IMG/VR virus record: IMGVR_UViG_3300008119_000003
Span: 1 to 64,000 of that record
DNA length: 64,000 nucleotides
DNA from: a virus
Strand: one strand, 5' to 3'
Under the pieces are notes generated by a model, which saw only the letters and a program-made list of their open reading frames with translations, did no database searches and was not told the DNA's origin. The translations under genes and the position numbers were made by a program. Positions 12,901-58,565 of the stretch are shown here, piece after piece (positions within the stretch are counted from its first letter, which is position 1; the number at the start of each line of letters is the position of its first letter).

Positions 12901-15900
12901 TCATTAGCTTCTAAAAATAACATTACTCCGCTTCAAGCTCTTAATACATTACTTAAAGATGAGAACTGGTTAGATAAACCAATTAACCCTAATCAAGAAA
13001 TATACGCCAAAGCATTTGCTAAACTGGATAGTACTAAAGGAGATTCTAAATTATTTATACTTAGATCAGAACTAACTCCAGAATTATTAAATGAGCTTAC
13101 TCCTGATACTAAGGGTGGTCAACGTGTTAAAGGTGGCGAGTACTACGGAATTAAAATTCTTGGAGACTACTATTCTCATAACACGGTTAAGTCTAAAGAC
13201 GGAGAAAATCTAGATATTATAGTTGTAGATAAAGTAGAAGACGCTGAAAATCAGTATCAAGAATATCTAAAGGGCGGTGCTAAAAACTTTACAGGAGTTT
13301 CTGAAGTAGAACCTGTAGATAAAAATAGATTGTTCATAACAATGGTAGCTGCACGTATTCCTGTGCAAGGTCTTAACTCTATGGAGTTCATGGAGGTATT
13401 TGAATTCTTACCAGAAGAAGCAGGTAACATTGTAATTCTTCCAGCAGAGATCGTAGCTAAGTCAGGTGGTGACTTTGACATCGATAAGATGTTTACTATG
13501 ATGCCTAACATTTCAGCTAAGTATAAAAAGATTTCTGATAAGAGTATCAAAGCTATTAGCGAGCAATTTGGTAGTGATGTAACACGAGAAGAAATAGAAG
13601 ATCTAGAAGAGAAGTATGCTGACCTAGATAATGAAGAAGCATTTACTGATGATGAGATGAAGATTTTAAACTTAGTAGATGTTTTATCAGAGGAAGAGGT
13701 TACTGTTAAACTAGATAAGAATAGAAAATCAGTTAAAGGTATTGAGAATGCTTTAATTAAAGATACGATAGGAATTCTTTCGATGCCTGAAAACAGAATC
13801 AAACTGATTACCCCTAATGGTATTGACATCCTTAAAGGTATTGCTGAGGACATGGCTTATATAGATAGAGGTGAAGAACCTGGAACTAGTAAGTCGCCAA
13901 CAGAAATATTTGAACTAGGTCGTAACTTATACAAACACCAGTCTAATAGTATTGGTAAAGCTGTACTCGGTATCATTGCTGTAGCAAACACGTTTAATAC
14001 TTTGTTTGCACGCACAGGATTAATTATGAGCAGCGATCGTATCATCACTTATAAGAAAGATGGTACTCCTGTATATGCCGATCAAAACCTATACTTGCCT
14101 CATAATTCTATTGACGGTAACATATCTTTATCTTCTGCTTATTCTACCGACTTAAGTAACCGTGTAGCTGATATCATTAACCAAATGATTAACGGAGCGG
14201 TAGACGTTGCAAAGGATGCATGGATCTTTGATATACAAGGTAACAAAGAGGTTATACCTTCATTGTTATTCCTGATCCAAGCAGGCGTACCGATTGACCA
14301 AGCAGTCTATTTTGTATCACAGCCTATTATTAAAGACTTCTTAGGTAAGCAACGTTTACTTAAGAGTAAGTTTGCTGTACCTATTGGTCAGGAGGATGTA
14401 GGATTATTCCACAGAATAGAAGCTCGTAACCAAATTCTATTTAACGTAGAAAATGGATTTACACAAGATCCTAAAAAATACTTGAGTAGTCAGGTATTCG
14501 GAGATACAAATGTTTTCGATAAGGCCCTTGTATGGAATCTTTTGGAAGAATTTGCTCCTAACCTAGAAGATTATTCAAAAGAAGATCTTAAGAAAAATCT
14601 AAAGAAAAAAGAAGGAGAAGGTTACAACGAATTGGACAGAGCAGTATTTACTCAGTTCATCATGATCCAAGAGATGGCTGGTCAGATTACACAGCTTACA
14701 CAGGGTCTTAAATTTGATAACGATAAGACAAGTACATTGCTCGATGCTCGCATGAAGATAGAGAAAATGAGTACTCTTACAAACGGTATTAGTGCAGAAT
14801 CAATTAGAAGAATTGCAGAAGAATCACCTATCAGTGCATTTAAAATCCAAGACTTTATAATCGAGCGATACCATAATTTATTCCCATTACGCGATAGTGA
14901 AGAAGTAAATAACTTTGTTCAAGATCTATTCCGTAGACAAGGGGATGGTAAAAACAAATCATTTGCAATTAAAAAAGCAACTGGTATGGATGACGAGACT
15001 TTACAAAGAACATTGAGAAATGATCTTATGAGTTTCCTATTCCAAAGATCATACTATAAATTTAATTCTAATACCAACACGTATCAAGGTAAAGATGTAG
15101 AGGTTGAGATAGAAGAGTTAAAGAATTTAAAGGCTGCAGCTAGAGTAAAAGAAGGTAAACTGTATATAGATAAAAAACAGATTAACAGTTTGTTTAGCAC
15201 AAAGCAGTATAGTAAACAAAGCGCCTGGCAGTTTGCTGCTCCGGTAGATAATATAATCTTTGACATGTACGATCCCGTAACAGGTAAACAATTATTTACC
15301 AAGTTCGTATTTGAAAGAGAAGTATTAAGAAGCTATCCTGAGAATTCTAAAGAGAATATCAGCAAGACAAAAGACTATGCGAAATATGTTGAGCAGTATA
15401 AGGCACAGCCTGATGAAAAGTATACAGCTGAATATAAAGCTTACGAGTCTGTACTTAGAGATAAAGCATTAGGTAACTTAAATCTTCACGGTTATTTATT
15501 CTACGGAGATAAAGCATATGGTCGTCAGATCATGCAGCTTAAAGAAAGTAATCCTAGCTTATTTGAAAAGTATTCAGTACTTGCAAACTTAGAAGCTGTA
15601 ACCAAACCTTACACAACTACTACTCTTACTAATTTAAAGTTTGCTAATACTCTGTATACAGAAGATGATCTAAACATCTACCATAACAACTTACAGGATC
15701 TAGCTAACCCTAGCGTTATTAAGTCAGAAGATCCTGTGGAGAATGCAAGAATATCAGAGCTATTCCAAAAGTTTGGTTTGTTCTCTTTATTGCAGTCAGG
15801 TACAGATACAAGAAGTACTTTCTCTATGATTCGTGCAGTACCGACAGAAATGTCTATGGCTCTATTTGAAAAACCATATAAGCAGTTTACAGAAGAGTTA

Positions 15901-18417
15901 AAGTATGATGAGATTGAAAGTTTATTACGCGATTATCAAAATACATTTGTTACAAGCCAGTATGCAAGAAGTAACTATCTAAGTAAGAAAATTAAAAACT
16001 GGGCTACTAACCCATTACTTAAAGGTGCTGTTGATGCTAATGGTAATATTCCAGATAATGTAATTTACAATCTGGATCCAGAAGCTCTTCAAAAAGCTAT
16101 GGAAGCTGCTGCTGAAGCAGAGAAAGCTGCTGAAGAACAAGAGGCTAGAAATGTAATGATAAAAGGTATACCTGTTAACTTAACACAGCTTGGTATATCA
16201 TTTACACCAAACGATCAGCAAGTAGAAGCTCTTAACAATATTGCGGAATTTATCAGCAAAGGTTACGATATGACTACTGATGATGTTACTAATAACATGT
16301 ATACTCTTATGGGATATGCTGGTACTGGTAAAACAAGTATCACTAAAATCTTACTGGAATACCTAAGAAAAAGAAATATTACTTACAGTGTTACAGCTAC
16401 TACACATAAAGCTAAAGGAGTATTGTCTAAAGCTATTGGTATGCGTACCAAAACTATTCATAAGTCTTTAGCCTTAGCACCTAAAATAGATCCTACAAGA
16501 GTTAGCTTAAAGGACCTAGAGCTAAATGTTGTTGCCTCTGGTGAATTTCCTACAGATGTTTTAATCATCGATGAGTCATCTTTCATTGGACCTGATCTAT
16601 TTAATTTCATAAAACGAAGAGCTGAGAAGAACCAACAGCAGGTAATTTTTATTGGTGACCCAGCACAGCTTAAGCCTGTAGCCAAAGAGAAAAGAAATAG
16701 AGTTGTATTAAATAAAGAAAACTCTCCTGTATTTAGAGAGGTATCTAATAAATCTGAACTTACTCAAGTTGAACGTCAGGCTGGAGATAATCCTTTGGGT
16801 CCAATCTTAGATTCTATTCGTAACAACATGAAGGAATCGTTGCCAACATTCGGCTACAAGTCTAAAGTTATTGGTAATGAAGGAATAGTATTTACGTCGT
16901 CATCTAGAGAATTTGCTAAGGATGTTGTAAAAGCTTTCCAATCAGAGGAGTTTAGAAATAACAGAAACTTTGTTAGAGCTATAACCTATGAGAACAGTCG
17001 AGTTGAAAAGCTTAACACTGCTATACGTAGAGGACTTGGTTACACTGAGCCTTATGTGGTAGGAGAAATCATGATGGGTTACAGTAACTATAAAAAACAA
17101 ATGGGTACTGATGATTACGCTATTAATAATTCAGTAGACTACATTATAACAAATATTGAATACGTTCCAAGCAGAAATGTTGGAGAAAAAGCATTAAAAG
17201 AATCTGGCCTAAACTTACAACCAATGGTGATGTCAGGATATAATATTACTCTTCAGGATATATCCGATTCTAAGATTGAACCTGTTGAAGTATTTATGTT
17301 AGACAATAACAATAGCGAAGAACAGTTTAGAGAACTAGGCCGCCAAAGTGAAGCACTAGCAGCACTTGGTGAAAAGAGTACTAAATTGTTTAAGCACTGG
17401 TATAGATTTATGGAATCATTTGCTCTAAACAAAAATATAGTAGCAGATGAGATTGATCCAGAAACAGGAGAACCAAGAGTTGTTGTACTTAAAACTCTTG
17501 ACTACGGTTATGCTCATACTATTCACAAGTCACAAGGTTCTACGTATACAAACATATTTGTAGACTTAGATAATATTAATGTATCTCAAGACATAGAGGA
17601 AAGAAATCAAATGAAGTATGTTGCTCTTTCCAGAGCTACGAATATTGCCTATGCTCTTACAGAAAATGCAGAAGGAGATGCACCTCAGATTGACTTTAAC
17701 GGAGACTTCGTTAATAAAACAATAGTACCATCTGAAACTGATAAACTATATAAGACAGAGGCAGACATACAAACCTCTAAGCTTATGACTATCTTACAAG
17801 ACAACAGTACCGGAGTTAGAACATTTAAATATACGTTGGATGCTAAATCTGGTACAGCTGGTAAAGGAGTTCTTACTGAAGAGACTGCTAGAATGATTAG
17901 ACAAGATTATCCAAATGCTTTAATGGTATTCAATGACTTCACAGACCTGAAAGGAAATACTGCTGGAACAAACAGCGTATGGAGAGCATTAGGTTCTAAC
18001 GGTATCGGAATTTCTACTAAGGTGGGACCTTCTCCAACTAAGGTAGGATCAGATAAAATTAATATGTCTGAGGCATTGACTGATGAAACTCTAGATGATA
18101 ACAAGAAGTTAATTGACAAAGAAATTAAAGCTATCAAAGAAAAGCTTGCTGAGCCAGGTCCTCAAAAGTATCTAGTATTCGATGACTTTGGTTATGGTCA
18201 ATACATGATCGGGTATGTAGAGAATGCTCCAACGATCAGCAGACCTACTTTAAAAGGATCTGCCCCACAAACATTCTTGTATCTATCAGAACAATTATAT
18301 CGTAACTTTGGATACATTAATCCTCATTACTTATTACTTCCTCAAGGAAGAGCTGTTGTCCAAGAAGGTCAGCCTATTACAGATGATGAGATTATTGAAC
18401 AAAATAAAAAATGTTAA
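3970..18417 (+). CDS. Virion-packaged multidomain RNA polymerase (crAss/phi14:2 gp66-like) with fused SLOG-like, ASCH-like, 2OG-Fe(II) oxygenase, zincin, SF1B helicase and macro-like domains
   Basis: Catalytic GGDFDIDK at 13471-13485 preceded by RIPVQG; KRNAG, EGDGQGWI and STQLRKLI motifs; HEAWH at 8488-8502; Walker A GYAGTGKT at 16312-16335; TIHKSQGSTY and YVALSRA helicase motifs. Confidence 0.9.
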   Translation: MINCTLSNKQLRILRTKIAKDLLTYVDNNENFDLKDYLSKIYNQVNDATKNQNLALDYARVSLPFIKQLLGVDNTLENLPEQGLNIAELYKTTRLAGDDKNGFQVVVDYLGVTINPAKNLGEVKKDLEKEEDQEKAAKKNVDNRVVPTIYKETRKPYDPVSTSMQEVLSGKPESVRDPRMKIYSDITKMILDKIPLGGAKDFEGIEYPGVNGGIFVKMMRYNRIAVNDTFPHVKEVIESGVDQDYIIEDYNFAFVYVLTDKDGNELRFNDKGEVTKSGTLVYYNTRFLPKRGSNKLFDVDNVTNTQKPIEVAKNLGISIEEATEFLRSGFEELAKAYDYIRLKDGNSIMYSITGGSKGAIVDNNRKMVPFQTRIFRNEPLSFAFYAKDKLKPGDFSGVYVTGAQSNYPVLIAPRSISDSLATDLVEMLTKSVNKSDGQPLSNKEKVDILSTYILNSVKDIQYGVDKSNGAIYIKLEGQPLKLSSPEAADTLKNVFLKQPSGFDRKNIIALPLANSNKNVTVFSRNPNGTFSTESVPYMTYLEQNMDMNVELDEDGLLKRYNPYFNLMINLDSMGKVLLDNGNVDEKEETNNEKVARLRAEEQIEILKKIPNIDSYKVKGKIDSNLMPEDIKKIYQEIYDRYDAVITPILRDQIELEIMETLSKVQDVAAFTGARDLTPKEQTEQDRIIAEITKKYLGSSKKIAKPVTNTTENKPEEFVNHSGGAYGGDTLWDIIGRRFGVVEHRHYREASNRNLSKKLRDFGVSATVLTKEQMDTARQEIKDLINKDYPDTVEGNLQVRNYYQVANADSVFAVAPILRVHKDTRGTVVKKIKAVTGGTNTAVQLAIALNKPVYIWDAGSKSYEGTGRWYTYDYSVEQFVPTDTPTLTKNFAGVGTRDVEDYDVKDRFDQWGPRFQYVGKDIELEAIQAITDVYEKTFGSKPEVDPFVKADALPPIEQNFEDGEGGRTMQPQFKGKSAMDLIISGDRTRTTRANTDITRMLKDYNLPSITALKGMIVRMVDRNGRQVYARITDVSRFNKTYQLDTWQKEGWDEATTDKLLGKYPYAIEFEVVKDPGQKTATEVKTVSEDYGVVQAETNPTESEKQADIDLIKPHIQRQAFKENVGKYANEMFHYSLRWGRKNYNFFVLKDGKYVKSTIADEGSQLYSKDRNGNYVKSNRKDKAAYNNGLINPLDIDSFAGKGDMYGYDLVDQNGDPLPSISELQPIIDKIESALGISMRNYDSVIGNIYLPGEYVYPHKDTSESKSARKYPVIVYSIGNDAGLGIVDNNEGKMTFANEYDAKWLPAGEKLKGYTNEVLTKHGSIYTFGMGGKGRFELTHSTPINSKKDTPQSPITLPNGKVVTNYTITLTFRRAADLAEGMADSPTTSDKVSAVEKKAAEVVQKVEPQQIFRRGRSSADSNILDNLMNDDDFIDKNGKNKLGIQGNIKATREQIALAKTWYENSPLSKHIPFKVMFNAINTATKNGIARWDVNGITLFKGSDYSDLYHEAWHGFTQMFLTKEERDKLYNEARLNKGSFVAFDGSTVTFGAATDEQIEEYLAEDFREYMLGKGKKVLDKTPVKKNIFQKIFEFLKALFGKTNADDVITNGNNNSYTNELYEKLRVGDLNQFTFNQANRVFTTLNKVVTTTTPKDNTTPAKLGYEASALIGSTVDALFVEAIAKLNGGKTHVFTTAAIRTVKGRTTVYKYVLQELTKQLENVYLDKLDMEAKGLDTQDINYELDTLSYAVKHFGKPDEVLKPTGVMKYHMETSKFMEFDDRQIVELNKIDDSKLTIKNEFESKSGNEMSGKEKASPILLYTIRGLYAYDTDGSVKTNRLGFPKLMDPNAAWNRIYNITDGARNIQDVYNRLSEAAVDYPAIAQFLEKVGPPTNMETSSQQLWTDITNVLTMKRIPLMAVRTTFSSEFVEAVDPETGEVLMEGNKPIKETVTTFKVTPTRAGGEYSKVGAKWDNYFAVAAPNQYITVGADNVNTLNIQAVAENFDRTLSINKLDTVFEFMEAIGMPLENNSTVRKALANKNNPTFKAIYDLHTTILYGIYPYNNMYAGANPIVIKKPSDLVKEYKVNIDDFKVANKLSGISIKYNTIQNFHLTWSDDFSDTTVSNAEGENQYEKSLRGTLMNQIDSINTADTITELTQEGVSNAEDLSMNHLAKSRNPFMKTSKFMRRLFDENGKKIVYESAWGDRVRSQIELLNMSGTSVEITNVRGLINESGIASANADETTKILQDFYMMMLYGVSEATRHADKSTTYLFRLVATDPKDEKGKVLKHLIDLSSFTQRSNPDAPSAGRIEFTKDLVKHLCAEYERIQKLKDGDPAGVAVVGDKTYAEKGSEFVIFDKILDTDTKTKIKKARTSSLSEPVLTAEDLYKYLNDPKRVDLKNSIEQQIGTYLTSQVKEFEESLTEMGFYNNPQLYSQVLNKMGVRNPESITEERRSQLLKDMAEAYVANAWSQNLEVTLLFYGDPALYPGEADFFKRNAGLGATGTIPRTDIYMQQYVNAKLAANSEAARLGFKPKKFGKTMTSAVMEDAKTQSVYYDEYLKEAIEFETERLTKLKASEEQIEKTVKAITKRFGEYKKMTEGDGQGWINFDAYRALLMSLNKWTNTQESIYNKIVNREEVTEDILQFFPVKKMQYWGPLKTDGLPVYGFHKFSLMPLIPNIIQGKNLQSLQSKMLEQGIDYALLKSGSKINTLTKDGAVDKFYKNSKSNTDKTLAIEEEGFEFTPNEIFMDYFKDQLEVHDHFNNKVTFSTQLRKLIEDGLMENGVPTDWKPFDFSDPWQRIQAWEAASDSEKMSSKNYKKLIRYEANLEALVQLKKDKLVKEIGSDMKSLLDFVKKELTRQELSDHEINFIDYDGITKEPKQSLDLSLSADKIEKLLVSVVQKRLINQKITGETLVQVSGVGFENANNNMRNATEEEIKKYGTNAGLPFYRKKPDGSTSAMKVKIALQGGFKKLLYHPDVTSLASKNNITPLQALNTLLKDENWLDKPINPNQEIYAKAFAKLDSTKGDSKLFILRSELTPELLNELTPDTKGGQRVKGGEYYGIKILGDYYSHNTVKSKDGENLDIIVVDKVEDAENQYQEYLKGGAKNFTGVSEVEPVDKNRLFITMVAARIPVQGLNSMEFMEVFEFLPEEAGNIVILPAEIVAKSGGDFDIDKMFTMMPNISAKYKKISDKSIKAISEQFGSDVTREEIEDLEEKYADLDNEEAFTDDEMKILNLVDVLSEEEVTVKLDKNRKSVKGIENALIKDTIGILSMPENRIKLITPNGIDILKGIAEDMAYIDRGEEPGTSKSPTEIFELGRNLYKHQSNSIGKAVLGIIAVANTFNTLFARTGLIMSSDRIITYKKDGTPVYADQNLYLPHNSIDGNISLSSAYSTDLSNRVADIINQMINGAVDVAKDAWIFDIQGNKEVIPSLLFLIQAGVPIDQAVYFVSQPIIKDFLGKQRLLKSKFAVPIGQEDVGLFHRIEARNQILFNVENGFTQDPKKYLSSQVFGDTNVFDKALVWNLLEEFAPNLEDYSKEDLKKNLKKKEGEGYNELDRAVFTQFIMIQEMAGQITQLTQGLKFDNDKTSTLLDARMKIEKMSTLTNGISAESIRRIAEESPISAFKIQDFIIERYHNLFPLRDSEEVNNFVQDLFRRQGDGKNKSFAIKKATGMDDETLQRTLRNDLMSFLFQRSYYKFNSNTNTYQGKDVEVEIEELKNLKAAARVKEGKLYIDKKQINSLFSTKQYSKQSAWQFAAPVDNIIFDMYDPVTGKQLFTKFVFEREVLRSYPENSKENISKTKDYAKYVEQYKAQPDEKYTAEYKAYESVLRDKALGNLNLHGYLFYGDKAYGRQIMQLKESNPSLFEKYSVLANLEAVTKPYTTTTLTNLKFANTLYTEDDLNIYHNNLQDLANPSVIKSEDPVENARISELFQKFGLFSLLQSGTDTRSTFSMIRAVPTEMSMALFEKPYKQFTEELKYDEIESLLRDYQNTFVTSQYARSNYLSKKIKNWATNPLLKGAVDANGNIPDNVIYNLDPEALQKAMEAAAEAEKAAEEQEARNVMIKGIPVNLTQLGISFTPNDQQVEALNNIAEFISKGYDMTTDDVTNNMYTLMGYAGTGKTSITKILLEYLRKRNITYSVTATTHKAKGVLSKAIGMRTKTIHKSLALAPKIDPTRVSLKDLELNVVASGEFPTDVLIIDESSFIGPDLFNFIKRRAEKNQQQVIFIGDPAQLKPVAKEKRNRVVLNKENSPVFREVSNKSELTQVERQAGDNPLGPILDSIRNNMKESLPTFGYKSKVIGNEGIVFTSSSREFAKDVVKAFQSEEFRNNRNFVRAITYENSRVEKLNTAIRRGLGYTEPYVVGEIMMGYSNYKKQMGTDDYAINNSVDYIITNIEYVPSRNVGEKALKESGLNLQPMVMSGYNITLQDISDSKIEPVEVFMLDNNNSEEQFRELGRQSEALAALGEKSTKLFKHWYRFMESFALNKNIVADEIDPETGEPRVVVLKTLDYGYAHTIHKSQGSTYTNIFVDLDNINVSQDIEERNQMKYVALSRATNIAYALTENAEGDAPQIDFNGDFVNKTIVPSETDKLYKTEADIQTSKLMTILQDNSTGVRTFKYTLDAKSGTAGKGVLTEETARMIRQDYPNALMVFNDFTDLKGNTAGTNSVWRALGSNGIGISTKVGPSPTKVGSDKINMSEALTDETLDDNKKLIDKEIKAIKEKLAEPGPQKYLVFDDFGYGQYMIGYVENAPTISRPTLKGSAPQTFLYLSEQLYRNFGYINPHYLLLPQGRAVVQEGQPITDDEIIEQNKKC

Positions 18418-18428
18418 ACTAAGTAAAG

Positions 18429-21400
18429 ATGAGCGTTTGTCCATTACCAAATTCACTAAACGAATTAACCGAATATGCTAAGCAGATAGGCTTAGGTCCA
18501 AGAGCTTCTACGGAAGTTCTTCGGGCTTTTATGCAGAAGAATAGAAATCTTCCTATGGGAGCAGAACCTATTGTTCCGACTAACGAAGAGTTCAAAGCTT
18601 TAATGGATAATATGGACGTATGGAATACTGAGGGCAGACAAGTAATTATGCCCGATCTATACGCAGGTTTTGGAGATAACATGAATGCTTTTCCAGAGTA
18701 TAGTGTTTTAGTAAATCCTATAAAACTTGATGCACAATCTCAAGCTAATTTAAAAGCAGCTGCTACGGTAACTGTATTAGCACAAAAACTTAGTAGTAAC
18801 TTAGGTGTACCTTACCAGTTTATAACCCCGGCAGAAGCTGCAGAATTGACAAAAAATGTCAATACTTGGAAGGGACAATCAGCATTCTTCTTCGGAGGAG
18901 TTGTGTACATGATACCAGAATTAGTCACAGAGAAGTCTGTGCTACACGAATTTGCTCACCCCCTTATACGTGCTATAAGAATCAGCAATCCTACTTTGTT
19001 TACTAAACTAACAAATGAACTTAAGAATAGTCCAAACGGTACAAGACTGCTAGCTGAAGCTAGAGAAGAGTATTCTGATTTAACAGCAGACGATCCTATT
19101 ATTTTAGAAGAGGCTTTAGTAAAATCATTAACTGCTCAGGCTGTAGATAAAACTGATTCAGCATTTAATAAATTCATTAAGAATTTCTTATTTGCATTAC
19201 GTCAGATACTAAGAAAGGTATTCGGCGATATGCCACAAAAAGTTAAAGTAGAAAACCTAGATCAGAATACTACACTTGCTGAGCTAGGAGACATGTTAAT
19301 ATTAGAACAGTTCGACATAAATCTAGAGGGTGTTAGCCAAGAAGATGTAGCCGCTTATATTAATGATGTTAATGAATATGTAAAAGCATTACAAGACTTT
19401 AACAAGAACGATCTGCAGCAAAGCACAAACCTTTTCTTTGAGATGGTTAAAAAACAAATCAATCTTTTAGAAAAGAATAAGGACTACGACGGGATGAAAA
19501 AGATCCTAAAGGATGCATTCGACAGACCTGACCTAGAACAACTCTTTGCTAACTTAGCACCTTACCAAGATATATCTTCTTTCCTTACTAACGAAATGAG
19601 TAAGTTAAAAAGAGATGCAGAGTTTGCAAGAAAACATACAGAGGCTTTTGTAAATAGTTTGATCCGCACTAAGTACATGATAAACCGTTTAAACAAAGAG
19701 CTTGTTCGTTTAGTAAAGGATCCTAACTCTAAATCAAACGTAGCAACTGTATTCTATTATAACAACATCATCAATTACTGGGAGAATTTCCTAGATGATT
19801 TTCAAAAGAAGCTTACGGATGTTGAGAACGGCGTTGATTCAAGCAATCCTATATTTGAATTAATGGGATCTATTGCCAGCGAAATATCAATTGCCCGAAC
19901 TAATACTAGTAAAATTTATTTTGCAGGAACATCTGAGATTATCAAAGAGACTCTTGGACCAATGCAAGAAAGAATCGATCAGAGATTTAAAGATCTGATG
20001 GATGACTTAAAGAAAAGAGGAGCATCTCAAGAGATAATGGAGTTACGTCAAAAAGATTATTGGGGATTATCAGGAGATAACCTTAGAACTTTCTTGTCGT
20101 TAAAACAAAGAGTAGAGGCCGGAGAAAACCTATCAGGTTCTGAGAATGAAGTATACGAAAGACTTAGAGATATAAGCTATAAGGAAGGAGCATACTTAAC
20201 TGAACAGAAAATAGAATTTTTAATGCTAGGTCGTTTAGGAGACGCTCATGCTCTTAACTCTTTCCTAGAAGGTTTTATATATAACCAAGACCCTGTAGTA
20301 TTTGGATTTGCAACATTTGTCAAGAACAGAATGACCGATGTATTCACAACTGCTCAGCAAAAGGGTAATGCATTTTTAACTAATGTAAAGCCATTACTAG
20401 AGGCAGCAGGCTATAACCAATCTAACCCTGCAGAGTTTGGTAGGAGAGCTACGTTCTTAGACAAGAAGGGAGGTACAAATAAAGATACCGGAGTATTTGA
20501 AGGAAAGGAAGTACATACTCTCCTTAATCCATTCAAAGGTTATAGAGCTGACGTTGCTAAAATGCGAGACGAGATTCGTGCTGCAGAAATAGTAGCAGCA
20601 CAGACAGGTAATACTGATGAAGTACTAGCACTTAAGTTAAAGAAACAAAAGTTTGAAAGAGAGTACTTCCATACAGATTTTACAAAAGAATATTACGAAC
20701 GTTACGAAGTTTTCCGAAAAGGAGATAACGATATTATAGGTGCTAAGGCTGAGATGGCAAGACAAGAAATACTTGCTAAGATTCAGAATCTTACTACAGG
20801 TATGGGTAACCAAACCACATTAGAAAGACTTGATGCCGCAGAAGAACTAGATACATTATGGAGACAGTATCGTCAATTACATTCTAACTATTTACCAAGC
20901 GGTGAATTAAAAAGAAAAGAAGACCTAGAGATAGCCGAGCGACTAAGAGAGTTCCGAGCAATATCTCGTGAATTATATAGAGAGGAATTACTTCCAGATC
21001 TATTTACTAATTCGTTAGCTGCTCACGAACAGTTTCTTATTGACAGAAAGTATGAGAAAAACAGTCCTGCATTCAATCGTCTACGTGAGAAATGGATAAT
21101 GCAGAATACTAGAATTAAAATAAAAGATTCTTTCTACGAGAAACAAAAACAAATTCTAGATGAAATAAAAGCTATTACGGCAAAGCTTCCTAAAGATTCT
21201 CAAATAGAAGCTACTATAAGTGAACTATACGAAAAACTTAGTCAGCTTATGAGCCCATATCGTGATGATGATATGCAGCCAGAAGCTACAGCAATGGACA
21301 TTAGAAACATTGCTGAGATTAAAAGAGTAGAACAGTTACTTGATCTAGCTAAAAAGAATGTAGCAAAAGCATCTGGTCTAACTGCAAATGAGCATGAGAT

Positions 21401-24155
21401 CCTTAGTAATTACTTTGCTAGACTTAAGAATGGTGAAGAGGTTACTCCAGCAGAAAGAATGGAAGCTAACGATCTCCTTGTTAAGAAAAGTAAAAATGAA
21501 TTAAAAGAAGGAGATAGAAAAAGATTATACGAATTATGGGAAGATCTTGCTGAGTTACAGACATCAATACCTACAGACTATTATGTAGATACTATAAACA
21601 ACTTGATGAGTTATGTAGATCTAGAAGAGATGCAAAACCGATTCAAGTTTAAGGATATTGATAAGACTAATGCTCATCAAATTCTTACCGAAGAATTCTT
21701 AGATTTCTTAGACGAACAAAGCGAAGAAGTTGCTGATTGGTTTAGAACAAACCATATCCTGTCTAGAGCTACTGATAAGGACGGTAACGAGTATATGAAG
21801 ATCCAACGTGTTAAAGCTTGGAGCGTTACTCGACCTAAATCTGCAGAGTACTTAGAGACTCACGAGTTTAAAAACTCTGACGGCGAAATAGAAGTTCTTC
21901 CGTCTGTTCCTAATATGACTTATTATGATAGAGTTGTTAAAGATCAATATGTAACCAAAGAAGTTACTATGTTAGAAGCATTAGAGATGGGAGACCCTAC
22001 TCTAGCTAACAAAGATAACAAAGGTCAATGGTTACCAAGACTTGATGCTCCAGACGATAGATATATTAACCATGAATATTTTGATGTAGCTAAAAATAAC
22101 AAAGCATTACATGCTGCTATTATAGCTTTATCTAAATGGCATCTAGAGTTTCAAGAAGGAAATCCTAACCCATCTAAGTTGTATTTGGATATCCCTCGTT
22201 TTATGCGAAGCGGTTATGAAGCTAACCTGAACATGTTTACTGCAGAAGGTAAAGATCAAAATCCTATCAGTAGATGGTGGAAACGATTCCGAGCATTCTG
22301 GGGTGGAAGCGACGATGACTACGACAGAGGTTATGACTTTACTACTCAGCAGGAAATGATCAAGGGAGATATGTTCGACGATCAATATGCGGGCGTACCA
22401 ATTAATGGTCTAGCCGATATTGAAACCGTTAACGTATCTATGGATCTTACTTACGGTATAATGAGATACATGATCTCTGCTGAAAAACAAAGAGCTCTCA
22501 TAGAAATGAATCCTATGGCAAGAGCTTTACAAACAGTACTTTCTGACCCAGATAATGTAGTAAGACAAGTAAAGGGTATAAGCAAAGACATGCTTGACAA
22601 CTTTAGTTTAAGTAACATGTTTGAGAGAGGAACCAAACTTCTTAGAAAGGGAGAGAAATCTGTAAGGCAAAAAGCTATTGATAACTTTGTAGAAAGAGAA
22701 TTTGAAGGTAAACTAAACAAAGGGGTAGTCGGAGTAGACTCTGATAACGTATGGGTACATAAGCTAGCAGATAATATCATGGGAGCATCAGCTTTCGGAT
22801 ACTTTGCTATGGATATCCCATCAGCATTAAAGAACTCCTTTGGTCTACGTATCCAATCTCTCATTGAATCAGCCGGAGGCAAGTACTTTAATCATACTAG
22901 CTATGCAGAAGGTACTATGTTTTCAAATAAAGTTAGTTGGGAAATCAGTTTAGAAGTATATAAGTTTGGACCTAAGTCCCATAATACTCAGCTAGTTGAG
23001 ATCTTTGACGCATATCAAGGAAGATTCCAAGATAAGTTTGTTGAACACGGATCTAGATCTTTAACTAAAGATGCATTAGGAGGATTAAGCTGGATGACAA
23101 GTTTCCGTAAATGGACAGAATTAAATTCAACTCTTTCCATCTTCGGAGCAATGATGCATCACGAAAAGAATGTTACGCAAACTATAAACGGCGTAACTAA
23201 AAAGATAAAATATATAGATGCTTGGGAAACAGTAGATGGTCAGATCAGATTAAAGGAAGGTGTTGATCCAGAATGGGGAATAGGAGGAACTAAATTTAAA
23301 GCATTTAAGAATAGAGTACAAGGTGTTGTAAATAACCTTGCCGGTTCCTTTGCTAAGTTTGATTACTCTGAAGCAGATAGATATGTAGCATTCCGATTTG
23401 CTATTGCATTTAAGCGCTGGTTCTTACGTATGTTTATGAACCGTTTACAGCACAGAGGATCTCTAAGAAAAGGAACAGCTCGTGCTAGATTTGACGCAGC
23501 AGTAGGAGATACAGCTATGGGTTTCCACTTAGAAGCTTTAATGGCCGCAGGAAGAGTAATAAAAACAAAAGGCGAGTATGCTATGTTTTTATCTGATACA
23601 GAGAAAGCTGCTATGTTAAAAACAATAATGGACGTAGCCTATGTTATGGCATTTAGTATGGCCATTTCTATGATATTTGGATTTGATGAGGATGATCCAC
23701 AAAAGTTTGCTAAGCTACGTGCACGATCAGGACCACTACCATTCTTAGGAGTGTCTGATAATGAAAAAGAGTTTAACTTGGGAGGATGGTTCACAAACCA
23801 CGCCTTGTATATGACTATGCAACTAAAGAACGAATCTATGCAATGGTTACCTATACCAGGATACGGTGCTGATAACTATATAGATTTGTTAAGTATGGAA
23901 TCTGTATCTATGAATAATACATGGGATAACTATAAAAAGATTTTTGCTGGATCCGCACTTCATTTAGGTAACTACATGTTTGGAACAGACGATTCTAAAG
24001 CATACTTTGATCAACGAGAAGGACCATACGAATGGATGCAGAAGGATGGATCTAAAGTACTAACTTATATAGCTCGTTCATTAGGTCTAAGTGGGAAAAC
24101 TTTATCGCCAGATATGGCAATTATAAACTGGGTTAAAGGACAAAACTGGAGATAA
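18429..24155 (+). CDS. Giant virion cargo/ejection protein 3 with N-terminal zincin (HEFAH) domain
   Basis: 1908 aa; LHEFAH...LEEALV motif; long helical body with hydrophobic C-terminal segments; third gene of the crAss-like RNAP cluster. Confidence 0.75.
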   Translation: MSVCPLPNSLNELTEYAKQIGLGPRASTEVLRAFMQKNRNLPMGAEPIVPTNEEFKALMDNMDVWNTEGRQVIMPDLYAGFGDNMNAFPEYSVLVNPIKLDAQSQANLKAAATVTVLAQKLSSNLGVPYQFITPAEAAELTKNVNTWKGQSAFFFGGVVYMIPELVTEKSVLHEFAHPLIRAIRISNPTLFTKLTNELKNSPNGTRLLAEAREEYSDLTADDPIILEEALVKSLTAQAVDKTDSAFNKFIKNFLFALRQILRKVFGDMPQKVKVENLDQNTTLAELGDMLILEQFDINLEGVSQEDVAAYINDVNEYVKALQDFNKNDLQQSTNLFFEMVKKQINLLEKNKDYDGMKKILKDAFDRPDLEQLFANLAPYQDISSFLTNEMSKLKRDAEFARKHTEAFVNSLIRTKYMINRLNKELVRLVKDPNSKSNVATVFYYNNIINYWENFLDDFQKKLTDVENGVDSSNPIFELMGSIASEISIARTNTSKIYFAGTSEIIKETLGPMQERIDQRFKDLMDDLKKRGASQEIMELRQKDYWGLSGDNLRTFLSLKQRVEAGENLSGSENEVYERLRDISYKEGAYLTEQKIEFLMLGRLGDAHALNSFLEGFIYNQDPVVFGFATFVKNRMTDVFTTAQQKGNAFLTNVKPLLEAAGYNQSNPAEFGRRATFLDKKGGTNKDTGVFEGKEVHTLLNPFKGYRADVAKMRDEIRAAEIVAAQTGNTDEVLALKLKKQKFEREYFHTDFTKEYYERYEVFRKGDNDIIGAKAEMARQEILAKIQNLTTGMGNQTTLERLDAAEELDTLWRQYRQLHSNYLPSGELKRKEDLEIAERLREFRAISRELYREELLPDLFTNSLAAHEQFLIDRKYEKNSPAFNRLREKWIMQNTRIKIKDSFYEKQKQILDEIKAITAKLPKDSQIEATISELYEKLSQLMSPYRDDDMQPEATAMDIRNIAEIKRVEQLLDLAKKNVAKASGLTANEHEILSNYFARLKNGEEVTPAERMEANDLLVKKSKNELKEGDRKRLYELWEDLAELQTSIPTDYYVDTINNLMSYVDLEEMQNRFKFKDIDKTNAHQILTEEFLDFLDEQSEEVADWFRTNHILSRATDKDGNEYMKIQRVKAWSVTRPKSAEYLETHEFKNSDGEIEVLPSVPNMTYYDRVVKDQYVTKEVTMLEALEMGDPTLANKDNKGQWLPRLDAPDDRYINHEYFDVAKNNKALHAAIIALSKWHLEFQEGNPNPSKLYLDIPRFMRSGYEANLNMFTAEGKDQNPISRWWKRFRAFWGGSDDDYDRGYDFTTQQEMIKGDMFDDQYAGVPINGLADIETVNVSMDLTYGIMRYMISAEKQRALIEMNPMARALQTVLSDPDNVVRQVKGISKDMLDNFSLSNMFERGTKLLRKGEKSVRQKAIDNFVEREFEGKLNKGVVGVDSDNVWVHKLADNIMGASAFGYFAMDIPSALKNSFGLRIQSLIESAGGKYFNHTSYAEGTMFSNKVSWEISLEVYKFGPKSHNTQLVEIFDAYQGRFQDKFVEHGSRSLTKDALGGLSWMTSFRKWTELNSTLSIFGAMMHHEKNVTQTINGVTKKIKYIDAWETVDGQIRLKEGVDPEWGIGGTKFKAFKNRVQGVVNNLAGSFAKFDYSEADRYVAFRFAIAFKRWFLRMFMNRLQHRGSLRKGTARARFDAAVGDTAMGFHLEALMAAGRVIKTKGEYAMFLSDTEKAAMLKTIMDVAYVMAFSMAISMIFGFDEDDPQKFAKLRARSGPLPFLGVSDNEKEFNLGGWFTNHALYMTMQLKNESMQWLPIPGYGADNYIDLLSMESVSMNNTWDNYKKIFAGSALHLGNYMFGTDDSKAYFDQREGPYEWMQKDGSKVLTYIARSLGLSGKTLSPDMAIINWVKGQNWR

Positions 24156-52748: not shown

Positions 52749-53747
52749 ATGAAGCTAACTGCCACTGGTAAACTCGCTAAACAGTATCTCAAGAAGTATC
52801 CTAAACTTCCTATCCTAACAATTGCTAAACTAATGTACTCTGAAAATGAACTGCACTTTAATAGTGTAGATCATGCTCGTTCATCACTTAAGCGTCATTC
52901 AGGACTAGCTGGTGCAGAAACTAGGAAGACTGTAGATCCGGAATTACAAAGACCTATAACATATAATTATGCACCATTCAATGATATACCTAAATCATAC
53001 AAGTCTGGACCTAATGACTTTGTATTACCAGATGATGCTAATCATATTCTTGCTCTTTCTGATATACACTTTCCTTATCATGATGAGGAAGCTCTTGGTG
53101 CTGCTATACAATACGGCATTAACCAAAAGGTTAACACGGTTATTCTTAACGGTGATATTCTAGACTTCTACCAGTTGTCACGCTTTGATAAGGACCCATC
53201 TAAACCTAAAATGCAAGTAGAACTTGAACAAGGTAGATGGTTTATGAAAGCATTGCGTACCGCATTTCCTAAAGCGAGAATCTATTACAAGATTGGTAAC
53301 CACGAGGACCGTTTAGAAAAATGGTTAAAGATTAAGGCTCCTGAATGGATAGGCATGGACGAATTCGAATTAAAGATGTTACTACGATTCGGAGAGAATC
53401 AAATACAACTTATCGATTCATCTGCTACCATCAAGGCCGGTAATCTAAATATTATCCACGGTCATGAATACTTGGGAGGAGGAACTGTTAATCCCGCGCG
53501 TAATCTTTATTTAAAAGCAAAAGCGAGTACAATATGCGGTCACTTCCATAGAAAATCAGAATTTACAACTCGTGATATCAACAATAAAATCCAAGGCGCT
53601 TGGACTACAGGTTGTTTATGCGAGTTATATCCTGAATACATGAAAGGACACAGCGATTGGGTACACGGGTTTGCAGTAATAAAAATAGAAAAGGACGGAT
53701 CCTTTGCAGTAGATAACAAATTAATCATAGACGGAGTAGTATCATAA
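52749..53747 (+). CDS. Calcineurin-like metallophosphoesterase
   Basis: SDIHFP, NGDILD, GNHE, HGHE and GHFH motifs. Confidence 0.88.
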   Translation: MKLTATGKLAKQYLKKYPKLPILTIAKLMYSENELHFNSVDHARSSLKRHSGLAGAETRKTVDPELQRPITYNYAPFNDIPKSYKSGPNDFVLPDDANHILALSDIHFPYHDEEALGAAIQYGINQKVNTVILNGDILDFYQLSRFDKDPSKPKMQVELEQGRWFMKALRTAFPKARIYYKIGNHEDRLEKWLKIKAPEWIGMDEFELKMLLRFGENQIQLIDSSATIKAGNLNIIHGHEYLGGGTVNPARNLYLKAKASTICGHFHRKSEFTTRDINNKIQGAWTTGCLCELYPEYMKGHSDWVHGFAVIKIEKDGSFAVDNKLIIDGVVS

Positions 53748-56277: not shown

Positions 56278-57669
56278 TTAGTCGATTCGTATACAATTGT
56301 ATCGATCCGCACTAATAGTCTTCATCATAACCGCTAATGGCGACAGTTCGTCACCACCTAATACAGACCGAATGATACTCGGACTATACCCGCTAACGAG
56401 GGCAGTATTAATTGTGTTAGCCTTAACAGGTACATTGCCTAAACGACCGTTAACATTCCAAAAGATTATGCCCGGCATCTCATAACCGCAGTGTGCATAC
56501 ATATCTTTGATAGCATCAAAGTTAGTACGTATACCACAGGCTACATCAAACTCCATGTCACTGATAATCAGTAACTTGGTTGGCATATCTTCCTGTGCTA
56601 CCTTACCTGCAACAGCACGGTCTAGTAACACTGTGAATGTTTTATTTAGGTCTGTATTCATACCCCAATTTGCTCTACCAAGATTGAATACTTTCTCTGA
56701 AAGAGTATTGCCTTCTATCTTGTGGAACTGTGGGCTCTCACTGAACGTTAACACCAAATCCTTGAAAGGACCTTCGTTACGTTCAGAGATATACAAACCT
56801 AATCCTATAGATACTTCCATAGGTTGGCCCATCATACTACCTGATACGTCGCAGACAGGTAAGATTCTATCCTTGCACCCTTCCATATAGTTAGGTAACG
56901 ACTTCCACATAGCATCATATGCCTTTGTGTTAAAGCCGTCAACATTAACCTTGTGAACTAAATCACTTGGGAATAATACAGAAGCATTCATCTTCTCCTT
57001 ACCGTCCATAACATCGCTGATATAAGACTGATATCTTATACCATCGTGTCTATGAAATGCCTGTACATATCTCTTACCTGCAACAGAAGGTACCTTGCTA
57101 TACTGAATAGTTTCCCATTCGTTAGCACACATCTTCTGCTCCACGGTATTAGACATAGAGGTAAGTCTTCTACGGAATGTACCTGCTGATACACCGAGAT
57201 ACTTATGCATACCTACAAACCATTCTCCCTTACGTGGGAACCATTTGGCTAATAGGTTAGCGTTAGCATTCTCGTCTAGTTGGTGCTTTAGCCAATTAAG
57301 AGTATCATCACTTGGTCTTTCTATGATAAAGATATCCTTCCAATACCCAAACGTTGGGATATGGATAGCTACCTGATCATATACTTCACCATCTAGTGTC
57401 ATTAGATTTCTCATAATTACCTGAAAGAATCGCTTCTCTCCCGCACCACCACGTGCATCTCTTGCCCAAAATAGAATCTTAAGAGCAGTTAACTTATCCT
57501 CGCGATATGCTCGGGTAAATGCTTTTATGATATCTTGTTCAGACATAAAACGGCTCGCACCTGCTATAAAGAACAGGTCAAGACAGTCAATACCTGCAGT
57601 ACTATGTGTAACTGCGCCGTTATTGGTAAGACTATCGTTAGAAAACATCGCATTTGTAAAAGCGTCCAT
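56278..57669 (-). CDS. DUF2828 / TROVE(Ro60)-like protein with C-terminal vWA domain
   Basis: T.NG, LDLFF, RDARGGAGEK, GYWKD, AKWFPR, MIDAS CDVSGSM, ISDMEFD, FWNV and SGYSP motifs. Confidence 0.85.
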   Translation of the reverse strand: MDAFTNAMFSNDSLTNNGAVTHSTAGIDCLDLFFIAGASRFMSEQDIIKAFTRAYREDKLTALKILFWARDARGGAGEKRFFQVIMRNLMTLDGEVYDQVAIHIPTFGYWKDIFIIERPSDDTLNWLKHQLDENANANLLAKWFPRKGEWFVGMHKYLGVSAGTFRRRLTSMSNTVEQKMCANEWETIQYSKVPSVAGKRYVQAFHRHDGIRYQSYISDVMDGKEKMNASVLFPSDLVHKVNVDGFNTKAYDAMWKSLPNYMEGCKDRILPVCDVSGSMMGQPMEVSIGLGLYISERNEGPFKDLVLTFSESPQFHKIEGNTLSEKVFNLGRANWGMNTDLNKTFTVLLDRAVAGKVAQEDMPTKLLIISDMEFDVACGIRTNFDAIKDMYAHCGYEMPGIIFWNVNGRLGNVPVKANTINTALVSGYSPSIIRSVLGGDELSPLAVMMKTISADRYNCIRID

Positions 57670-57700
57670 AGGTAAAAAGGTTTTGGTTAAACATTAATTT

Positions 57701-58029
57701 AGAGGGGTAGGCCACGAGTATCACTACTCGGCTTTGCACGTACGACAGAATGAAGAGAGCCTTACAGTTAACTGCTGTGGCCTACCATCTCTTGGTATGG
57801 GACTTACCCCATACCGTTAGCATTGTATTATTAGTTTTACAGTGCTGACTCATTCTTTAACGTGCTAATGTCTTTATGTTAAACAGAATAGTTGTTTAAC
57901 CTTATTTAATTGTAGTTTTAATAGTGCTGAACTATCCTTCACTAACATAAAGACAGGTTGTAAAGATACAGAATGCATTTAACTTCCCATAGTTTGTTTA
58001 TAGTGCTGTTAGCATTCTTCCCTTTACAA
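57701..58029 (-). ncRNA. Tandem array of 3-4 related stem-loop RNAs (Y-RNA-like candidate)
   Basis: Units 57958-58029, 57869-57955 and 57736-57865 (plus 57701-57792) have covarying stems and conserved CAGCACT and ATTCTGT on the minus strand. Confidence 0.6.
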
Positions 58030-58031
58030 TA

Positions 58032-58298
58032 TCAATACTGAATACGATCAGACTCATCGCCGTCCCAAAAGTCGGCTTCGCTAAAACCACCTTTGTAACT
58101 ATCGGTAAGTTCGCGGATAGCATCTTCGGTAAAACATTCTTCTATGTTACCTTGTCTAACATATACCAACGACTTCTCCTGTAATAGGGCTTCGTAATGG
58201 TCTATAATAGTGGCAACACAAACGTTAGGCATAACCTTGCCGTCGTAGAGATTAGTAAACTTTCTCTCAACGGCAGAACGGGCAGACATTTTATCCAT
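58032..58298 (-). CDS. Hypothetical protein
   Basis: 88 aa. Confidence 0.55.
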   Translation of the reverse strand: MDKMSARSAVERKFTNLYDGKVMPNVCVATIIDHYEALLQEKSLVYVRQGNIEECFTEDAIRELTDSYKGGFSEADFWDGDESDRIQY

Positions 58299-58301
58299 AG
58301 T

Positions 58302-58565
58302 CTAATAGATATCGTGATAAGGTGAATAATAAGTTACTTGATCACTCCCGGGAACGTACCTTTCGAATGTCGCGGTCCTTCCCTTAATAATACCTTTGCC
58401 TGTCAGCCTATAGACTAACTTGGCTAACCACATCGGATATTCCCATACTCGGTAACCTTTCCTATAATACTCCAACATAAGGAATAGAACAGAATAAGAA
58501 TCTCGGGAAGTTATCCACTCGTAGTTATTGTAGGTAGAAACAATAAAGGTTTTCTTACGTAGCAT
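58302..58565 (-). CDS. Hypothetical protein
   Basis: 87 aa. Confidence 0.55.
   Translation of the reverse strand: MLRKKTFIVSTYNNYEWITSRDSYSVLFLMLEYYRKGYRVWEYPMWLAKLVYRLTGKGIIKGRTATFERYVPGSDQVTYYSPYHDIY

Follow-up and report, generated by a model that had tools for sequence, protein, structure and literature searches.

Structured CAGCA-loop RNAs beside a phage DUF2828 gene as a candidate Y-RNA-like partner of a divergent Ro60 homolog

Ro60 proteins accompanied by adjacent arrays of Y RNAs are already known from bacteria and a few phages, and the locus described here raises the question of whether proteins of the DUF2828 family have RNA partners of a similar kind. The locus lies in the first 64,000 nucleotides (nt) of the IMG/VR virus record IMGVR_UViG_3300008119_000003, a complete freshwater virus of 120,320 bp with direct terminal repeats; this 64-kb stretch, with a G+C content of 37%, is the window of the present analysis. 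On its minus strand a DUF2828 gene is separated from the open reading frame (ORF) upstream of it by a spacer of 362 nt, which holds three structured RNA units on the sense strand. These units probably represent an undescribed Y-RNA-like family whose partner would be the DUF2828 protein, a divergent Ro60 of phages, with binding and function being predicted. The elements of the locus are listed here, and the helix names (P1 to P6) and the covariance model R1 are described below.

56278..57669, minus strand: gene for the DUF2828 and DUF7788 protein, 463 aa, with a predicted Ro60-like fold (helical-repeat ring plus C-terminal vWA domain) and an intact DxSxS motif
57670..57705, minus strand: leader of 36 nt between the end of P4b and the ATG
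57706..57865, minus strand: unit 3, the complex, gene-proximal unit; fold z -4.93 for the P1-closed part and -3.35 for the P4-closed part
57869..57955, minus strand: unit 2; fold z -5.42; R1 match 47.9 bits, E 1.1e-6
57958..58029, minus strand: unit 1; fold z -5.14; R1 match 41.1 bits, E 2.9e-5
58032..58298, minus strand: upstream ORF of 88 aa, taken from the ORF list, function unknown

Units 1 and 2 are built to one plan, in which an outer stem (P1) leads through an internal loop, purine-rich on its 5' side and of the UGU type on its 3' side, to an inner stem (P2) of the GAAUnn/nnAUUC type that closes a loop of 30-40 nt, with CAGCACU at the loop start and AAACUA within it. In unit 1, P1 pairs 58029-58022 with 57965-57958, the internal loop is GGAA opposite UGUAU, P2 pairs 58017-58012 with 57976-57971, and CAGCA occupies 58008-58004; the corresponding elements of unit 2 are a P1 of 13 bp (57955-57943/57881-57869), the internal loop GUGAA/UGUU, P2 at 57937-57930/57893-57886 and CAGCA at 57929-57925. 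Unit 3 shares with them P1 (57865-57860/57741-57736), P2 (57855-57850/57753-57748) and CAGCAC (CAGCA at 57847-57843), but its "loop" measures 90 nt and contains a variable hairpin P3 (57815-57794), the strand P4a (57786-57777) and the hairpin P5 (57776-57764); 3' of P1 follow the hairpin P6 (57730-57715) and then P4b (57715-57706). P4a and P4b pair as GGUAGGCCAC/GUGGCCUACC, joining the loop of the P1/P2 hairpin to the 3' flank in an H-type pseudoknot topology. The arrangement of P1, internal loop, P2 and large loop, as in Y RNAs, is present in the minimum free energy folds of all three units. A preliminary description, made from the sequence alone, had located the shared motifs correctly on the minus strand (CAGCACU at 58008-58002, 57929-57923 and 57847-57841; AUUCUGU at 57974-57968, 57889-57883 and 57751-57745), and the stems that it had drawn do pair, the outer ones as UUGUAAAG/CUUUACAA, UGUCUUUAUGUUA/UAACAUAAAGACA and GCACGU/ACGUGC and the inner ones as GAAUGC/GCAUUC, GGAUAGUU/AACUAUUC and GAAUGA/UCAUUC. 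What it had counted as a fourth unit (57701-57792) belongs to unit 3, as the 3' domain with helices P4, P5 and P6 through which the pseudoknot forms, and the CAGCA there is not conserved in relatives.

The three structured units are real and lie beyond chance. Folded as a 371-nt segment, the spacer reaches -105.7 kcal/mol against -76.7 ± 5.4 for shuffles (z -5.34; 0/100 shuffles as good). With at most one mismatch the 13-nt pattern CAGCACTRTWAAA occurs three times on the two strands of the 64-kb window, always within one 175-nt stretch of a single strand, as against 0.59 ± 0.75 occurrences in shuffles, 3/100 of which reached three matches anywhere. Relatives were available as 48 viral loci at 34-89% protein identity (numbered L001 onwards). 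A sequence-only alignment of 11 unit 2 orthologs gave 23 consensus pairs in RNAalifold, 8 of them with compensatory changes. Unit 1 has orthologs in L001, L004, L007, L009 and L010, and L003 carries a short-looped copy whose P1 covaries (AAAU/AUUU vs AAAG/CUUU). The P4 helix recurs at the same place with unrelated sequences as 10-11 bp in L009, L011, L012, L031 and L040, a length reached by 0-7 of 300 shuffles; the P4 of L030 is weaker (8 bp; 76/300 shuffles as long). Two further helices were set aside. One, AGCACUGUA/UACAAUGCU in the unit 3 loop, was rejected as part of the family core: it covaries in L010, is absent from units 1 and 2, L011 and L012, and is lineage-specific. The other, an ACU/GGU mini-helix in the unit 2 loop, is invariant and hence uninformative either way.

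Beyond the closest relatives the motif was followed with a descriptor (CAGCA no more than 3 nt after a stem of at least 7 bp closing within 60 nt), which found 68 matches on the gene strand and 11 on the opposite strand, and with a covariance model of the simple hairpin, R1, built from 32 aligned curated units. A search of both strands of the window and the 48 loci (306,532 bases) with R1 returned 67 matches at E ≤ 1, seeds matching by construction, and all 67 are on the strand of the gene. They fall in the window and in 35 of the 48 loci, at most about 1.2 kb from the gene, and have G+C contents of 0.21-0.47. At E ≤ 0.01 there are 53 matches, 52 of them distinct, and in their alignment the stem cells are paired in 97.7% of cases, compared with 68.1% in shuffles and 35-49% in slid controls, while double changes occur at 7/7 stem pairs (113 such cells vs 24.8 ± 8.1); these numbers lean towards structure because the model shaped the alignment and pairing was a criterion in choosing the seeds. 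The RNA core that emerges is a covarying 7-bp stem with an A/U-rich loop of 30-50 nt that opens with CAGCA[A/C] and is A-rich at its 3' end, flanked by an unpaired A before the stem (85%) and an unpaired G after it (96%).

Six annotated phages in culture, none of which had given a seed, were also searched, and five of them have R1 units beside the DUF2828 gene:

Listeria phage A511: three units, upstream of the DUF2828 gene
Felix O1-like phage wV8: three units, located in the spaces between tRNA genes that come after the DUF2828 gene
Staphylococcus phage S-CoN_Ph13: three units, downstream of the DUF2828 gene, where they overlap a "hypothetical protein" of 29 codons
Campylobacter phage F352: one unit, between tRNA-Tyr and the DUF2828 gene
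Mycobacteriophage LeBron: one unit, downstream of the DUF2828 gene

Motif and gene co-occur in phages of Proteobacteria, Firmicutes, Actinobacteria and Campylobacterota. The placement of the units varies (upstream, downstream or within a tRNA array), and they are always on the strand of the gene. The group L013-L029 has its two units downstream; in wV8, L030, L034, L046 and Vibrio phage CZ01 the units are interleaved with tRNA genes, the Felix O1-type locus of wV8 holding three short units and one long tRNA-like form between them. In S-CoN_Ph13 (L054) the DUF2828 gene and its downstream array are present twice, inverted and with identical scores (record positions 14716-16450 and 21867-23601), and several very small "hypothetical proteins" have been annotated across its RNA units.

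The association extends to whole records. R1 has a match at E < 0.01 in 14 of the 17 records that carry DUF2828, or in 10 of 13 when only non-seed records are counted; among the positive records are Felix O1-like, Listeria A511, Campylobacter, Staphylococcus, LeBron, KVP40 and GAP32 phages. None of eight author-chosen control records without a DUF2828-profile match (T4, T5, RB69, SPO1, phiKZ, phage K and the phages Bxz1 and CcrColossus, which have TROVE-type Ro60) has an R1 match at E < 0.1, and for 14/17 vs 0/8 our own arithmetic gives a hypergeometric probability of about 1.5e-4. Of five phages picked blind, KVP40 was the sole carrier of the gene and the sole one with an R1 match. In the 120,320-bp genome to which the window belongs, the only two R1 matches are units 1 and 2. 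Elsewhere the distance to the gene can be greater: R1 matches lie 3-9 kb from it, on its strand, in L027, L048 and KVP40, and R1 clusters lie about 200 kb from it in GAP32 and Serratia phage BF.

The protein itself is recognized by Pfam as DUF7788 (1.5e-52) and DUF2828 (3.8e-30) and matches PHROG 850, "RNA-binding protein" (1.2e-132); NCBIfam has no match for the 463-aa protein. An AlphaFold2 model built on 26 homologs has a predicted local distance difference test (pLDDT) score of 87.8 and a predicted template modelling (pTM) score of 0.88. In a Foldseek search of this model against the PDB, the top 12 listed matches are all Ro60, Rsr or phage Ro60 chains, aligned at full length (500-564 columns) with TM scores of 0.36-0.66 and E ≤ 1.6e-4, from phage phiLo, Xenopus, human and Deinococcus (Rsr); after these come isolated vWA domains with TMq ≤ 0.28. 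Model and matches agree on a ring of helical repeats closed by a C-terminal vWA domain, and the window protein is, by its predicted structure, a sequence-divergent Ro60 homolog with the ring-plus-vWA fold. Residues D274, S276 and S278 of the vWA DxSxS motif, which is the MIDAS (metal-ion-dependent adhesion site) signature, are invariant in the 26 homologs. The same MIDAS reading is echoed in the available text of PMC12135203. A search of 50,697 phage records found homologs in 707, all but three of these (704) with a coverage of at least 80%, and they occur in Felix O1-like and Listeria A511-like phages, Campylobacter Fletcherviruses, KVP40-like vibriophages, GAP32-like jumbo phages and cluster L mycobacteriophages, where they are named "hypothetical protein" or "RNA-binding protein". 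One homolog (H64), from the 358-kb jumbo Erwinia phage pEa_SNUABM_12, is annotated "putative structural protein", and it could be packaged if that annotation rests on virion proteomics.

Known Ro60 systems offer several points of comparison, made here from the available parts of the papers cited. The Deinococcus Rsr-Yrn1 and Salmonella rsr-yrlBA-rtcBA systems (PMC4201824; RF02553) likewise place one or more small RNAs beside a HEAT/vWA ring protein gene on the same strand, as do the units of the window, which lie 36-360 nt upstream of their gene. The bacterial RNAs also combine a terminal stem and an internal loop with a large loop or module, some having permuted tRNA-like domains (PMC4201824), and RNA-repair genes lie near in some relatives, A511 having an annotated "tRNA splicing ligase". 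Unlike bacterial Rsr, however, the DUF2828 protein has no TROVE sequence match; the YrlA consensus lacks the core of the phage RNAs, i.e., the stem, the CAGCA[A/C] loop and the flanking A and G; and the window units have no tRNA-like domain of the YrlA kind, while unit 3 adds the P4 pseudoknot-type helix. Among phages, Thermus phage phiLo has a Ro60 (PDB 9KOP, 9L5Y) that was shown in one complex with Yrl RNA and host PNPase (PMC12135203), and hijacking of host PNPase was proposed there. The phiLo protein, which ranks first in Foldseek (E 7.2e-8) with 15% identity to the window protein, also has two Y-RNA-like elements (Yrl1/Yrl2) directly upstream of its gene, but it is a recognized TROVE protein, its RNAs were picked by a CGAA motif, and the available text does not report the CAGCA motif (PMC12135203). 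TROVE Ro60 with YrlA, sometimes in tandem, was described in cluster C mycobacteriophages, Caulobacter phage CcrColossus (three tandem YrlA) and Bacillus phage G (PMC4201824); Bxz1 and CcrColossus have neither a DUF2828-profile match nor an R1 match. That search was confined to genomes with annotated TROVE proteins, and its 22 phages (Table S2) do not overlap with the DUF2828 phages of the present analysis (Chen et al., 2014; PMC4201824). The Ro60-like gp130 of Felixounavirus Bas63 was found by PhageMaP to counter Ppl defence, with speculation on Y RNAs among the tRNAs (bioRxiv 10.1101/2024.10.10.617714); the available text identifies no RNA partner, whereas the present analysis maps candidate partners in a Felix O1-type locus.

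No Rfam family covers the motif. A search of window positions 57300-58400 at E ≤ 10 gave chance-level matches only (the best, lysM-TM7, at 22 bits vs a gathering score of 61.5), and short units of nine other loci likewise have no covering family. Long-loop relatives are recognized beside the gene as sub-threshold YrlA, in LeBron at 39.8 bits and in L034 at 36.9 and 32.3 bits (gathering score 69); in these matches the CAGCAA stem occupies the position of the YrlA stem and the loop carries a T-arm and a D-arm, and the fold of the long form of wV8 has a T-arm of the canonical type together with a D-like arm. The claims of the preliminary description were partly borne out: the predicted structure has the Ro60 fold that it had suspected, the covariation it had pointed to appears both in the alignment of R1 matches and in the sequence-only alignment of unit 2, linkage to DUF2828 genes extends across very distant phages and the motif is missing from the eight control phages, and the Rfam comparison that it had called for left the motif without a family. 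Its further proposals, namely processing into discrete RNAs of 70-90 nt, binding by the DUF2828 protein and a guide or decoy role for the loops, stand as predictions. Its idea of tRNA mimicry finds support in the long-loop relatives only (L034, LeBron and wV8) and none in the units of the window. A different tRNA-shaped RNA was seen at L035:1693-1808, with a 7-bp acceptor stem, a D-arm and a T-arm with a UUCAAGU loop; its anticodon and variable region are swapped for a long insert with ACAGCAAU (fold z -3.35), and ARAGORN does not call it a tRNA.

How the units would be transcribed bears on whether they act as RNAs in their own right. Only 3 nt separate the stop codon of the upstream ORF from unit 1, with no room for a promoter between them, and a scan of 57500-58500 found no sigma-70-like promoter in the spacer, which may nonetheless hold a promoter of another type. 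The same region has no terminator-like site, and the unit loops of 30-50 nt are unlike those of terminator hairpins. Because unit 1 follows the stop codon so closely and no sigma-70-type promoter is found in the spacer, co-transcription with processing is the likelier course in this phage. Bacterial Y RNAs encoded in rsr operons are co-transcribed and processed in the same manner. Other loci may have dedicated promoters: by our reading of the sequence, L041 has a TTGACA-17-TAATAT box immediately ahead of the unit that comes first, and another promoter ahead of the gene. In G003 a second array of three CAGCAA hairpins (L055:2517-2683, i.e., G003:C1:5016-5182) is found at a distance of 68 kb from the DUF2828 gene of this phage and comes immediately after two promoters of the sigma-70 consensus type, one of which (TTGACA-17-TATACT, again as read by us) ends 7 nt before the first hairpin; this array precedes a 317-aa unknown ORF and a DUF5906 protein. 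Sequence related to the phage is present in freshwater RNA libraries, and contigs from four of them cover 57709-57993, a weak hint of expression. In library X2 the contig of the array has a word depth of 303, compared with 2-6 for contigs of coding sequences, and another RNA-library contig has adapter sequence at its start, the junction being at 57709, within P4b. As proof of transcription, of strand or of RNA ends, the gaps in cover, the contig depths and the adapter junction are insufficient, and they serve as hints only.

The leader of 36 nt (57670-57705) has no Shine-Dalgarno-like sequence ahead of the ATG, nor is one found at this place in L001-L010, and a GUUUAACCAAAACC-like stretch is kept in the leader of all of these; together this suggests either a host not reliant on Shine-Dalgarno pairing or a special mode of initiation.

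Several considerations weigh against reading the units as the partner of a phage Ro60. As a phage ribonucleoprotein (RNP) the system depends on binding, processing and a phenotype that are predicted. TROVE (PF05731) is not recognizable in the protein by sequence, Pfam giving DUF7788 and DUF2828 only at E ≤ 0.01, and a 26-sequence profile finds no Ro60 among all PDB sequences at E ≤ 10; sequence searches found no Ro60 kinship, which only the fold search shows. On the RNA side, neither Y_RNA (RF00019) nor YrlA (RF02553) matches the window units at E ≤ 10, and the permuted tRNA-like domain (T-arm plus D-arm) is absent from them. The R1 seeds were picked with the descriptor, which demands CAGCA and a stem of at least 7 bp and so inflates both the pairing and the 100% conservation of CAGCA, and the alignment used for covariation was fitted to R1. 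Three of the 17 DUF2828 records lack an R1 match at E < 0.01: the record of L005 (G004), whose best match has E 0.09 and lies far from the gene; Vibrio phage CZ01, which reaches only E 0.2 genome-wide, a local search with filters off giving one unit (E 4e-4) between tRNA-Asn and tRNA-Trp, 10 kb from the gene; and G009, a fragment estimated to be 31% complete. The controls are few, and co-occurrence of the motif was assessed for DUF2828 and no other genes. The contigs from RNA libraries derive from related phages and are strandless, DNA carry-over is possible, and several phages may have been summed. Bas63 gp130, finally, is presumed to be a DUF2828 ortholog from its genus and gene position.

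Other accounts of the array must be weighed against these same observations. Were it a cis-acting leader, a structured 5' untranslated region (unit 3 with P4 especially) would control translation of, or read-through into, the DUF2828 mRNA, possibly by autoregulatory binding of the DUF2828 protein, and no free small RNAs would be made. The P4-bearing unit is indeed always gene-proximal (in the window family, L011, L012, L030, L031 and L040) and ends 36-50 nt before the ATG, a U-run follows P4b in L031 and L040, and the window spacer shows no promoter of its own. However, the motif does not keep to a 5' untranslated position: simple units are downstream of the gene in L013-L029, S-CoN_Ph13, LeBron and wV8, units lie within tRNA arrays, and the distance to the gene grows to 3-200 kb in L027, L048, KVP40, CZ01, GAP32 and BF, while putative promoters of their own precede the arrays of L041 and L055 and the second array of G003 stands before unrelated replication genes. 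A pure leader role cannot explain such placements and is judged unlikely, although a leader role could hold for unit 3 as an addition.

The variable distance, and the interleaving with tRNA genes in many phages (wV8, L030, L034, L046 and CZ01), would suit RNAs that the DUF2828 protein does not bind, whether independent phage small RNAs or elements of tRNA-unit processing and spacing (RNase entry sites or decoys for host nucleases, for example) that share an early or tRNA gene module with it; the remote units of GAP32, BF and KVP40 and the tRNA-shaped RNA of L035 with its CAGCAA insertion point the same way. Such independence nevertheless appears improbable. Scans for tRNA and tmRNA found none in the window and no tRNA gene in the whole 120,320-bp genome, so that the units are not merely spacers of a tRNA array, and in this genome the array still adjoins the DUF2828 gene. 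The tRNA-rich phages without DUF2828 (T4, T5, RB69, phage K, SPO1 and phiKZ) have no match at E < 0.1; in 35 of 48 loci the gene has units next to it, in every case on the same strand; and the long forms resemble YrlA, a known Ro60 ligand. It would be very surprising if no RNA structure were under selection and the repeats were due to chance or acted at the level of DNA, as A/T-rich direct repeats, protein-binding iterons or promoter arrays. The region is A/T-rich, as the G+C content of 0.21-0.47 among matches shows, and the 13-nt pattern taken alone exceeds shuffles by a small margin only (3/100 reach its count), but all 67 matches are on the gene strand, the stems still pair while their sequences change completely between lineages, and the fold z-scores are about -5.

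On the preferred reading, that of a Y-RNA-like family with the DUF2828 protein as its partner, the three units would be small structured RNA genes or processed segments of a polycistronic transcript; in the window phage the array probably shares a transcript with its neighbours, from which it would be processed. The stem/CAGCA module would be bound by the ring protein in the way that Ro60 holds the stem of a Y RNA, leaving the variable loop, tRNA-like module or pseudoknot domain to recruit or occlude a second factor, for which a host exoribonuclease like PNPase, RNA-repair enzymes and a defence nuclease are candidates. Such a particle may protect or remodel RNA, probably tRNA-related, during infection; the tRNA arrays and the A511 "tRNA splicing ligase" of relatives are a pointer to tRNA and RNA-repair biology. 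A second role, in setting how the protein is expressed, is possible for unit 3, since 36 nt separate the end of its P4 helix from the ATG.

The surroundings of the gene supply some further observations. The 88-aa upstream ORF has no PHROG match. A metallophosphoesterase gene (window 52749-53747, plus strand; PHROG 221, 7.9e-45) is situated at a distance of 2.5 kb from the DUF2828 gene; in LeBron there is likewise a metallophosphoesterase, 2.3 kb upstream of its DUF2828 copy, and A511 a metal-dependent phosphohydrolase downstream, and these neighbours may represent a link to RNA-end healing. In A511 (NC_009811.2) the "tRNA splicing ligase" is annotated 1.3 kb downstream of the DUF2828 gene, and a near-threshold ROOL RNA (L051:2507-3058; 87.5 bits vs a gathering score of 99.1, E 3.6e-16) is found about 1 kb upstream of it, among tRNA genes. 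Farther away, two giant ORFs occupy window positions 3970-18417 (plus strand, about 4,815 aa) and 18429-24155 (plus strand, about 1,908 aa), the latter with no PHROG match at 1e-5.

A bolder and tentative proposal is that DUF2828 and the CAGCA-loop RNAs form a widespread counter-defence RNP with interchangeable adaptors (the short hairpins, the tRNA-like long forms and unit 3). The adaptors would mimic or shield substrates of the tRNA type, or tether host RNases or repair enzymes, and in this way neutralize RNA- or tRNA-directed host immunity, for which the Ppl sensitivity reported for the Bas63 gene-130 deletion would serve as a readout. Plant papers mention DUF2828 as well, and by the same logic an unrecognized Ro-like RNP might exist outside phages.

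What is new here is the distinct RNA motif, its specific link to DUF2828 across hundreds of phages, and the pseudoknotted gene-proximal form. Within the searchable literature, which left subscription journals and bioRxiv supplements outside its scope, no paper on an RNA partner of DUF2828 proteins was found. Since the motif is concrete and searchable, the question can be tested directly, in phages for which a knockout phenotype has already been reported, and DUF2828 homologs occur in well-studied or therapy-relevant phage groups. Hundreds of "gaps" in phage tRNA arrays, together with several tiny predicted ORFs, would be re-annotated as RNA genes, and the Ro60/Y RNA principle would be extended to a second protein family that by sequence looks unrelated.

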